IMG/VR virus record: IMGVR_UViG_3300002098_000034
Span: 3,186 to 67,185 of that record
DNA length: 64,000 nucleotides
Source of the DNA: a virus
Taxonomy: Duplodnaviria; Caudoviricetes
Strand: one strand, 5' to 3'
Translations under genes and position numbers: made by a program
The notes under the pieces: generated by a model
What the model was told of the DNA's origin: nothing
What the model saw: only the letters and a program-made list of their open reading frames with translations
Database searches by the model: none
Shown: positions 60,794 through 63,002 of the stretch, piece after piece
Layout of the letters: the number at the start of each line of letters is the position of its first letter
How positions within the stretch are numbered: position 1 is the first letter of the stretch

Positions 60794-60978
60794 TTCTCTT
60801 GTGCCTTTTTTAGTATTGCTTGAATACATTGCAAGTGAAGCCAATCAAAGTTTTCAACATCAAAATATTCGCCATAAACCGATTTTATTTCCTCATCTGT
60901 TAGCTCTTTGAGCTTTTCTTCTTTGGCTTTTTGGAGTAAATTATAATCTTCTTGACTAACATGCCTTGTTACCATCAT
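60790..60978 (-). CDS. Small hypothetical (LTDEEI...AILKKAQEK)
   Basis: C-terminal ILKKAQEK resembles IIRKSQEQ of ORF 63817. Confidence 0.6.
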   Translation of the reverse strand: MMVTRHVSQEDYNLLQKAKEEKLKELTDEEIKSVYGEYFDVENFDWLHLQCIQAILKKAQEK

Positions 60979-61907
60979 ACCTCCAAATATTTCAATTGAA
61001 AGAAGTTTGCACCACTTTCATAACCAATGTAACCACGGGGATTGCAAACGACTTGAGTATCACCTACCCAATAATTGCTCATATTGTGCATATGACCATG
61101 AGTCCACAATTTAATTTGTGGCCTCTCTATAATTAGGTCAGATAAATCAGAAGCAAAGGCACCATTCATTAGTGTATCATGTTTATACCATTCAGCAACA
61201 CTTTCAAATGTTGGTGCATGGTGTGTACAAACCACAAACTTTTTCGACTTATCAGCAACAGCAATCTTGATATAATCTACCGCCTTATCATGGTCTTGAA
61301 TAGAATCTTCAACCGAAAACCTAGAATCTTTCTCATAATGGTCAACTCTATCAATAACCAATTCACCATTTGCATCTTTTAATAGTGTACCAGAGTTATC
61401 CGGATTCTTCACATAGATTACATTCTTGTGATGTGTCTTACGATTACTATTCTTGATTAACTGGAAATCGTTCATCTTCTGTCCACAATGCCATCTTGTC
61501 AATGAATCATCTTTGTTCATATCAGTCCACAATGTGGCACCAACAAAGGTAACATCATCAAGTGTCCATGTTTCTTTTTCCAAAATGTGGATATTGGGCC
61601 AAACAGTTAATTGGTCTTTTAATGTTCTATATGTCTTAGCAATATCGTAGTCATAGGATTCATGATTTCCGAGAACATAAACGACATGTGGGAATTGAAA
61701 AGAAACTCTCTTAAAGAAATCGATTACTCTCTTTCTTTGTTCACCACCTTTTTTGAATACTTTAGCTGTGCAGATATCGCCGCTGAGTATTAATACTTCG
61801 GCATTTTCTTGATTCTGTAAGTTGATATCACCAAATTCTAAATGTAGCTAAAGGTCGGAAGCAATTGCAATACGCAAGCTTCCGACACCTTTTCCTTTCA
61901 CAATCAT
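60975..61907 (-). CDS. Calcineurin-like metallophosphoesterase interrupted by in-frame TAG (61848-61850)
   Basis: Single frame: RIAIASDL*LHLE, LSGDI, LGNHE, VCTHH, THGHMH, VCNPRGY; ORF track only shows the part from TTG 61583. Confidence 0.85.
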
Positions 61908-61967
61908 AATATCTTCCAATCTTTATATGTTATACCGTGGTTAATCATTTCTGATACACCACCCCTA

Positions 61968-62402
61968 TTAATCTACTGTTTCCTTTTCTTTACAAAACTC
62001 CGTAAACTCTTTTACATTACCCTTGAAGATACTTTCGTGTGTATCACCACTCATGCCAAAGAAATTACAACCACAATTATATACTTCAATTGTTAATTCA
62101 TTACCATTTACATAAATTTCATATTCGTAATCCTGACCACAATCCTTGGCAGTTACGGGATACATATAAAATCCTCCAGCAGATTGTTTGAAATGAGCAA
62201 CTAATTGAGCAGCCAAACATCCGGCACCATTGAAGAAAGTTCCTTCTTCACCCAATCTTAAACCGTTTACAATTTTACCATTAGATAAAAACTCAGCCAA
62301 CTCTTGGCCATGACCAGTAGGATATCCATCAAACTGGCGGTAAAAATTAAGGATTTGTTCACCGTGTTCATCGAATACTTTGGTTAAACTGCGTGTACCC
62401 AT
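61968..62402 (-). CDS. Conserved phage hypothetical protein
   Basis: MGTRSLT...YRQFDGYP.GHG..L..FL, NG.GCLAAQLV..FK, DYEY; start at ATG 62402 after AAGGAG. Confidence 0.8.
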   Translation of the reverse strand: MGTRSLTKVFDEHGEQILNFYRQFDGYPTGHGQELAEFLSNGKIVNGLRLGEEGTFFNGAGCLAAQLVAHFKQSAGGFYMYPVTAKDCGQDYEYEIYVNGNELTIEVYNCGCNFFGMSGDTHESIFKGNVKEFTEFCKEKETVD

Positions 62403-62433: not shown

Positions 62434-62461
62434 ATTATAACACAACTGGAGATAAGGTCAA
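62434..62461 (-). promoter_or_regulatory. Sigma70-type promoter
   Basis: TTGACC-16 nt-TATAAT upstream of SD and ATG 62402. Confidence 0.7.
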
Positions 62462-62495: not shown

Positions 62496-63002
62496 TTACC
62501 CGTGGTTGGCGTACTCACCATGCTGAGTTTCACGAAATTCTTTAACTACTTTTTCTGCTTCTTCTTTTGTTTTAAAAGGTCCAAAATTATACCATTTTCC
62601 AAATTTGCTACATCCGGCAGTCCATCGTTTTCTGGTTTTATGCCAATATACACCTTTTATACCGGATGTATTATTACTATTGATTTTTCTATTATGTTGG
62701 TTTTGTGATTGAGTTACATCTCTTAGATTTTGAATTGTATTATTACTGGTATTTCCATCAATATGATCAACTATTTTTGGTATATAACCATGGTGATACA
62801 TAAAAATTATTCTATGTGTTCTATAACTTTTATAGTTAATTTTCATCACACTATAACCCCGACTATTGATTGTTCCTACAATAGAATTCTTTTTAATTTT
62901 CTCTGAAGGTGAAACTTTCCAATATAGTTGTCCATCACAGTACTCAAAAAGTTCCTGTAATAGTTCTTGGCTTATCGTGAATAGGTTTGAATATATAATC
63001 AT
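62496..63002 (-). mobile_element. Free-standing HNH-AP2 homing endonuclease
   Basis: HRII..YHHG, VDHIDG...NN...NLR.VT..QN..N, NTSG.KGV.W, W.A, G.F.T.EEA. Confidence 0.92.

Follow-up and report, generated by a model that had tools for sequence, protein, structure and literature searches.

A metallophosphoesterase gene interrupted at its metal-binding motif

The window is a 64,000-nucleotide (nt) stretch with a GC content of 35%, taken from IMGVR_UViG_3300002098_000034, a 67-kb viral record that is estimated to be ~40% complete. Its minus strand carries a metallophosphoesterase (MPP) gene whose reading frame is interrupted by a TAG stop codon inside the catalytic DxH motif, and this interruption is described here as a candidate site of programmed ribosomal bypassing. 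From the ATG at 61907-61905 the frame translates as MIVKGKGVGSLRIAIASDL*LHLEFGD. An initial annotation, made from the window alone, had pointed out the codon series GAC CTT TAG CTA CAT in this frame, and the series is indeed found at 61856-61842 (GAC 61856-61854, CTT 61853-61851, TAG 61850-61848, CTA 61847-61845, CAT 61844-61842). The frame then stays open for 290 codons and ends at a TGA (60977-60975). The first in-frame start codon past the TAG is a TTG at 61583, 265 nt downstream, in agreement with what the initial annotation had stated. If CTT-TAG-CTA is decoded as one leucine, a protein of 308 amino acids (aa) is predicted.

The window protein is a calcineurin-like MPP, with profile matches to Pfam PF00149 (E=5.6e-8) and phrog_1649 (E=7e-47). 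Its motifs read SDL(*L)H, SGD, GNHE, THHAP and HGHMH; the last four are intact, as had been claimed, and the DxH motif is intact only if the ribosome hops. Intact homologs are 297-298 aa long, the closest being 96% identical to the window MPP, and thousands of them start with MKIALASD[LIV]HLEFGD, with a single residue between D and H. Among 204 intact-motif homologs this residue is always exactly one (L in 94, I in 86, V in 22 and C in 2). Decoding as one leucine would therefore restore SDLHLE, with D-L-H the commonest form of the motif, and readthrough would not, just as the initial annotation had argued.

A model of the closest intact homolog (predicted local distance difference test score, pLDDT, 94.9) has the MPP fold, and a fold search matched it to PptH, Dbr1, MPPED2, GpdQ, Rv0805 and Mre11; the sequence search of solved structures gave no match to the MPP. 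In this model D8 and H10 come after the first strand (residues 2-7). Both residues are metal ligands in the MPP fold, and for this reason two extra residues between them should harm the enzyme.

Stop codon, leucine codons and hairpin across 22 variants

Protein and pattern searches recovered the same element from freshwater phage and metagenome contigs, as 22 distinct variants in more than 20 independent assemblies. The stop is TAG in 17 variants, TAA in one (L034) and a tandem TAG TGA in four (L171, L175, L208 and L218), the last giving a gap of 9 rather than 6 nt; a sense codon is found in none, and in all a stop codon would be in the A site at take-off. The putative take-off codon is CTT in 19 variants and CTG, CTA or CTC in one each. 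Paired with their landing codons these give CTT/CTA (14), CTT/CTC (3), CTT/CTT (2), CTG/CTG (1), CTA/CTA (1) and CTC/CTC (1), and TTA or TTG never occurs. The two codons are identical in 5/22 variants and change together in L021, L035 and L175. As expected of a bypassing site, they can be read by the same tRNA, being CTN on both sides in 22/22. For the leucine codon that follows, in H-L-E, 16/18 variants use TTA or TTG, and TTR codons make up 67% of the leucine codons of the window. Third-codon-position identity is 0.64-0.77 within the element versus 0.28-0.44 downstream. Kept across alleles with saturated synonymous sites, the element is, on this comparison, not conserved by chance.

Just upstream of the take-off codon, the initial annotation had described a perfect 9-bp stem (61886-61878 / 61862-61854) with an inner stem and a bulged extension, and each of these was reproduced exactly. 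The minimum-energy fold of the window hairpin (-22.7 kcal/mol, z = -5.3; 0/200 shuffles as good) includes the inner TTGC/GCAA stem; beyond a bulged U it is extended by AAGG:CUUU pairing, which takes in the take-off codon and base 1 of the TAG. Stop-bearing alleles fold at -19 to -24 kcal/mol (z -3.1 to -6.4), and intact alleles at -0.2 and -6.3 kcal/mol. Over the 22 variants the 9-bp stem is paired in 197/198 cells, with compensatory changes at pairs 4, 7 and 8 and G-U on the sense strand at pairs 6 and 9. It always ends at the base preceding the take-off codon and closes loops of 14-24 nt; the inner stem is poorly conserved. The Asp encoded by the 3' arm is the first metal ligand of DxH, and L017 and L036 have ATG where the loop of the window has TTG. 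Together, the pairing and its covariation suggest that the hairpin acts as RNA.

The hairpin's 5' arm lies in an N-terminal extension, MIVKGKGVGS, that is absent from intact alleles, which start at MKIALASD. KGKGVGS is common in the extensions of the variants. In L014 and L015 the 5' arm is translated in another frame (GRK versus VGS) while its bases are kept, which argues that the constraint is on RNA or nucleotides rather than on the peptide. Their loop is 1 nt shorter (14 nt) and is offset by an extra base before the 5' arm, so that the leader stays in frame. An in-frame leader ATG is present in 21/22 variants, and upstream sequences, read by eye, have a Shine-Dalgarno-like sequence before this ATG in divergent lineages. 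The double-stop variant L171 has no in-frame extension; at L171:3006-3060 (-) an ATG in the loop (MRIAVASDL) is its only in-frame start, and the hairpin bases are still kept. A purine-rich tract just 5' of the hairpin has a counterpart in all variants (GGAGG in L014 and L034). Its end in the window, AAGG (61891-61888), is able to pair with CUUU (61853-61850), and the tract may pair either with CUUU or with the ribosome's anti-Shine-Dalgarno.

Occurrence of the insert and selection on the downstream frame

The independent DNA runs X4 and X5 contain the window allele with no insertion or deletion, and a metatranscriptome library (X19) yielded an 83-nt contig over 61828-61907 with zero differences and the 6 nt kept, although DNA carry-over into that library is possible. 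Coverage of the MPP gene in RNA runs is patchy and contig-derived and has no bearing on expression level or transcript ends. Because more than 20 independent assemblies and X4, X5 and X19 agree, an assembly error is excluded.

The open reading frame (ORF) downstream of the stop, ORF2, runs uninterrupted for 248-306 codons in all lineages with a contig that extends to the gene end, except L012. Among stop-bearing pairs dN/dS is 0.07-0.25 (L014/L015, 0.086 at dS 0.6; L009/L019, 0.15; L013/L017, 0.074), and pairs sharing a clade-specific cassette variant, at dS 0.5-0.6, have dN/dS of 0.09-0.15. The median for 482 intact pairs is 0.21 (5-95% range 0.10-0.33). The downstream frame is under purifying selection, which argues that the gene is not a pseudogene. 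The predictions that could be checked of the initial annotation's reading, a natural minimal bypass, all held up: the 6 nt are found in independent data, the insert comes with the hairpin in 22 variants, and no relaxation of selection is seen.

Association with a mobile endonuclease gene

Stop-bearing alleles are scattered over the MPP tree, and several have intact nearest relatives at 90-96% identity. To place the 16 stop-bearing rows on a tree of 222 MPP sequences takes 12 state changes, of which well-supported branches force at least 7. Of the stop-bearing lineages, 18 have enough flanking sequence, and in 12 of these the gene immediately upstream encodes a GIY-YIG endonuclease, in one orientation or the other; of 72 intact loci, not one has such a gene within 1 kb upstream (Fisher p = 7e-11). 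One complete endonuclease ORF, L010:7486-8139, matches phrog_314 (E=1e-22). The possibility that two unrelated endonuclease families adjoin the cassette was ruled out, as all eight tested are mutually homologous.

Alignment of the window with this ORF locates a 69-nt remnant of the endonuclease 3' end just before the MPP gene, and the gene appears to have since been deleted in the window with the bypass retained. The element also persists without an endonuclease gene in L014, L017, L019 and L034. A 14-aa ORF, MINHGITYKDWKIL (61904-61948, minus strand), whose TGA overlaps the MPP ATG, is a relic of the endonuclease C-terminus and not an independent upstream ORF. Compared with L006, in which the MPP is intact, 129 nt of the window stand in place of 223 nt that comprise a 65-aa gene together with MPP codons 1-9, with 96-98% identity between the two on both sides. 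The 65-aa gene and these nine codons would thus have been removed when the cassette came in. The gene itself, at L006:1023-1220, has no assigned function; it is missing from the window. L003 has the block in common with the window, as well as ~110 nt on the downstream side of the gap; after this the identity falls to 74%, and the shared tract looks like a co-conversion tract.

The adjacent endonuclease gene, the patchy distribution and the apparently co-converted flanks are those of a free-standing homing-endonuclease cassette. As judged from these alignments, a full cassette comprises the GIY-YIG homing endonuclease gene, the N-terminal extension, the first nine MPP codons in re-coded form and a gap that starts with the stop. 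This goes beyond what the initial annotation had seen in the window: the 6 nt appear to be the end of a mobile endonuclease cassette, and MIVKGKGVGS the part of it that supplies the 5' arm. We consider it likely that TAG CTA forms the 3' end of a mobile homing-endonuclease cassette, which has time and again taken the place of the 5' end of MPP genes in phages, and that its small gap is skipped by a programmed +6 or +9 hop; this estimate is for cassette and hop jointly.

A proposed hop over the stop codon

Under this proposal, translation would initiate at the ATG at 61907, and the ribosome would melt the hairpin while translating it. It would then stall with peptidyl-tRNA-Leu on CUU in the P site and with UAG, followed by C, in the A site, and the tRNA would release CUU. 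The hairpin, whose 3' arm ends one base before CUU and whose base can extend over CUUU, would re-form behind the ribosome and draw the mRNA about six bases through it. After re-pairing of the tRNA with CUA, decoding would restart at CAU, the codon for the His that is the second DxH ligand. Nine bases would in this way be decoded as one Leu, and the enzyme would gain the canonical SDLHLE metal-binding motif. A conserved mRNA structure at the take-off site is a known feature of bypassing, and the one found here would presumably act on the ribosome. The hop predicts the junction peptides IAIASDLHLEFGD and IAIASDLHLEFGDINLQ, whereas readthrough predicts D-L-X-L-H (IAIASDLXLHLEF). By analogy with T4 gene 60 and MobA, the gap probably spoils the endonuclease target in conserved DxH-coding DNA, and the cassette would therefore be immune to its own nuclease with no residues added to the active site.

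Several points weigh against the hop. No cultured phage was seen to carry the element: a blastn search among them with the gene gave no match and tblastn gave only relatives of at most 35% identity. The nascent chain at take-off is only 19-21 residues long, and no clearly conserved signal like that of gene 60 was seen in the nascent peptides of the variants. The change from CTT to CTA is an imperfect match for a tRNA with a GAG anticodon, and unstimulated stop-hops in E. coli are low-level (bioRxiv 10.1101/2024.12.09.627546). The upstream ATG of L171 opens a different frame, which ends at a TAG within the hairpin loop. L012, which is frameshifted downstream, is either a pseudogene or an assembly error. 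Finally, with a cassette that passes from allele to allele, some of the purifying selection recorded in the downstream frame may be older than the respective acquisition.

The frameshift of L012 (L012:1955-2005) lies near GCAAAAATC and close to an A-run, and the GNHEH motif goes on in the +1 frame.

Alternative explanations

The stop could instead be read as an amino acid, through a suppressor tRNA, reassignment of TAG or leaky termination, and the product would then carry the two-residue insertion D-L-X-L-H. Gene callers have translated four such alleles with TAG=Q, and with ~40% of the phage genome available a suppressor tRNA could lie elsewhere. However, TAG is an ordinary stop in the window, where it terminates 5 of 52 long ORFs; no suppressor tRNA was found in the available sequence, and no tRNA gene in the window. 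The existence of tandem stops (TAG TGA, in four lineages) and of a TAA variant makes readthrough implausible, and no variant has a sense codon at this position, though full expression would follow if the insertion were tolerated. Readthrough also leaves the restriction to CTN and the paired changes of the leucine codons unexplained and runs against the single D-H spacer residue of 204/204 homologs. Because of the TAA and tandem-stop variants and the take-off and landing codons that change together, hopping is favored, and we regard readthrough as very unlikely. A +1 frameshift of the prfB type was rejected because it meets a stop after only three codons (AGC TAC ATT TAG). That a purely selfish cassette inactivates the gene, leaving the 19-aa leader only, with downstream frames intact because the insertions are recent, we consider unlikely. 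The cassette is mobile and its acquisitions look recent, there being an intact allele with 96% identity to that of the window; the MPP gene is accessory, one allele (L012) carries a frameshift, and in X5 the intact allele is deeper than the stop allele (174 versus 24). Against this, cassette-sharing pairs keep a low dN/dS at dS 0.5-0.6, ORF2 remains open in all lineages reaching the gene end but L012, and compensating insertions and deletions keep the leader in frame. Matched CTN codons and a hairpin placed exactly at take-off would be purposeless in a dead gene, and the element outlasts the endonuclease gene in the window and in four other lineages.

Homing-endonuclease insertions are known to have split T4 genes 39/60 and phage Aeh1 nrdA into two working products (10.1101/2022.08.31.505936), and the leader and body of the MPP might likewise be two separate chains, or termination at the TAG might be followed by reinitiation. 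Reinitiation would have to do without an in-frame ATG, GTG or TTG for 265 nt past the stop in the window, and the other variants have no conserved start codon there either; a separate body starting at L-H would be without the Asp ligand. Both forms of this explanation are highly improbable. That the 6 nt are a sequencing or assembly error, or are taken out of the mRNA, has a practically negligible probability: the element is present in more than 20 independent assemblies, X4 and X5 show no insertion or deletion, and the metatranscriptome contig retains the 6 nt, with the reservation on DNA carry-over given above. Programmed hopping over the stop is the reading that we prefer.

Neighboring features and related searches

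Table 1. Features of the MPP locus in the window (arms and tract given 5' to 3').
Feature	Position	Strand	Remark
Whole MPP gene	60975..61907	-	ORF1 + 6-nt gap + ORF2
ORF1 leader	61848..61907	-	MIVKGKGVGSLRIAIASDL then TAG; ATG at 61907-61905
N-terminal extension, codons 1-10	61878..61907	-	putative cassette part; holds purine-rich tract and 5' arm
Purine-rich Shine-Dalgarno-like tract AAAGGAAAAGG	61888..61898	-	conserved, just 5' of hairpin
Hairpin 5' arm GTCGGAAGC	61878..61886	-	
Hairpin loop, 15 nt	61863..61877	-	begins with TTG matching start codon of intact alleles
Hairpin 3' arm GCTTCCGAC	61854..61862	-	encodes Ala-Ser-Asp
Putative take-off codon CTT (Leu)	61851..61853	-	CTN in all variants
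Putatively skipped stop TAG	61848..61850	-	never sense codon in variants
Putative landing codon CTA (Leu)	61845..61847	-	CTN in all variants
ORF2, enzyme body, landing codon to TGA	60975..61847	-	open frame; dN/dS within intact-allele range
Endonuclease 3' remnant, 69 nt	61904..61972	-	aligns with end of L010:7486-8139
Putative cassette as in window, 129 nt	61845..61973	-	in place of 223 nt of L006:1024-1246

Further upstream, at 62496-63002 (-), the window carries a free-standing homing endonuclease gene of the HNH_3 + AP2 type (168 aa; HNH_3 E=1.6e-16). It is unlikely to be the nuclease of the cassette: the intact L006 is 98% identical to the window from 62600, inside this gene, to 61974, so that gene and cassette do not go together. 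A near-consensus sigma-70-type promoter (TTGACC, 16 nt, TG-TATAAT; 11/12 matches) is found at 62434-62461 (-), before a 155-aa gene, and probably also drives the MPP gene in the window lineage. Most full cassettes (L009, L011-L015, L017-L020) have a TTGAC(A/T/C)-17-TATAAT-like promoter of their own, ~60-100 nt before the leader ATG and, where the endonuclease gene is divergent, between it and the MPP gene. In X4, alongside the 6-nt allele, one contig joins 61844 to 61974 and represents another arrangement of this stretch.

An apparent full-length match in Synechococcus phage B23 proved to be an ordinary intact gene, and a pattern scan of prokaryote genome contigs gave no match. A scan of viral contigs for the hairpin pattern only returned, besides known members, unrelated GC-rich palindromes; L032 and L033 were chance matches. 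A variable-gap scan brought out the double-stop variants; where the spacer was neither 3 nor 12 nt, most of its matches were unrelated. No intact allele carrying the hairpin or the extension was found in scans requiring near-exact arms.

Public gene calls of stop-bearing alleles (P0066, P0122-P0124 and P0005) are either translated with TAG=Q or truncated to an internal start (251 aa). Since gene callers treat such genes in these two ways, stop-hop genes would be mis-annotated in protein databases, and annotations of this kind call for caution. A search for conserved motifs in which two same-box codons flank an in-frame stop, next to an endonuclease gene, offers a recipe for finding more of them.

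Comparison with known bypassing systems

Very few systems of programmed bypassing have so far been available: gene 60 of T4 with its homologs, the inserts of yeast mitochondria and candidates, as yet unconfirmed, in Streptomyces phages. Gene 60 is an endonuclease-plus-bypass cassette with an immunity role for the gap (Huang 1988; Bonocora 2011; Manning & Atkins, bioRxiv 10.1101/2022.08.31.505936), and pairing of the exiting mRNA has been proposed from gene 60 work as the driver of forward bypassing (bioRxiv 10.1101/2024.12.09.627546). The MPP element shares with gene 60/MobA a conserved mRNA hairpin at the take-off site and a layout of endonuclease gene, unique N-terminal extension, copy of the replaced codons and gap. 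In both, the insert ends at or just past the landing codon, the insertion is within a metal-binding motif and has occurred repeatedly and independently at one site, and the endonuclease gene can go while the bypass stays, as in the window. The two differ in gap length (50 nt in gene 60, 6 or 9 nt here), in host gene (the large subunit of topoisomerase II versus MPP) and in endonuclease (MobA, an HNH enzyme, versus a GIY-YIG type). The host gene is split in two in T4, whereas the MPP is not split. The take-off stem-loop of gene 60 holds the stop, while the MPP hairpin is placed on the 5' side of the take-off codon, which it takes in, and gene 60 has a KKYK nascent signal for which the 19-21-aa chain of the MPP has no clearly conserved counterpart. 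No sequence similarity between the two cassettes was noticed, without a formal comparison. The MPP element would work like the gene 60/MobA family but is not a member of it, as host gene, gap and endonuclease type differ.

The +1 frameshift site of prfB, which encodes release factor 2 (RF2), reads CUU UGA C and combines a shift-prone P-site CUU with a weak termination context. The MPP site resembles it in having CUU in the P site, then a stop codon and then C, but it has no Shine-Dalgarno 3 nt upstream, and its productive event would be an in-frame +6 hop.

One early stop-hop construct (Weiss 1987 or O'Connor 1989) is said to have carried CUU UAG CUA. This is the precedent that the initial annotation had named, and it held in part. 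The exact 9-mer was not found in the literature searched, which did not cover O'Connor 1989; synthetic stop-hops do decode nine nt as one amino acid (Weiss et al. 1987, as summarised in PMC5009743). In that summary, these E. coli stop-hops share with the MPP site the 9 nt per residue, the matched codons flanking a stop and the re-pairing two codons downstream. They differ in being low-level and free of stimulatory signals (10.1101/2024.12.09.627546), whereas the MPP site is natural, conserved and linked to a hairpin. The 2016 review by Atkins and colleagues knew in-frame stop-hopping from synthetic constructs only, with no natural occurrence (PMC5009743), and our literature search found no later report of a natural one. 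The comparisons suggest that the MPP element is a variant of programmed bypassing, and it would then be a natural stop-hop for which we found no published report.

The 81 translational bypassing elements (byps) of Magnusiomyces capitatus mitochondria, spread across many genes and reported to be independent of mRNA context, are, as summarised in the review (PMC5009743), likewise short mobile inserts in coding sequence that are skipped between similar take-off and landing codons. As described there, they differ in being mitochondrial and in that neither an endonuclease nor a conserved 5' hairpin is linked with them.

A natural system of ~60 nt would open the roles of hairpin, stop and codon matching to simple reporters, and the 22 variants already give stem covariation. 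We see about even chances for a broader claim, namely that these are the first natural stop-hops, that a re-forming 5' hairpin suffices for an efficient hop over one or two stops with no long nascent-peptide signal, and that phage homing endonucleases generally use small gaps to gain immunity while leaving the host protein unaltered. The comparison suggests that T4 gene 60/MobA has a small and independent counterpart in the MPP cassette. Homing endonucleases would then be tied to bypassing for a second time, independently, which would support the idea that bypass gaps evolve as immunity devices of selfish nucleases.

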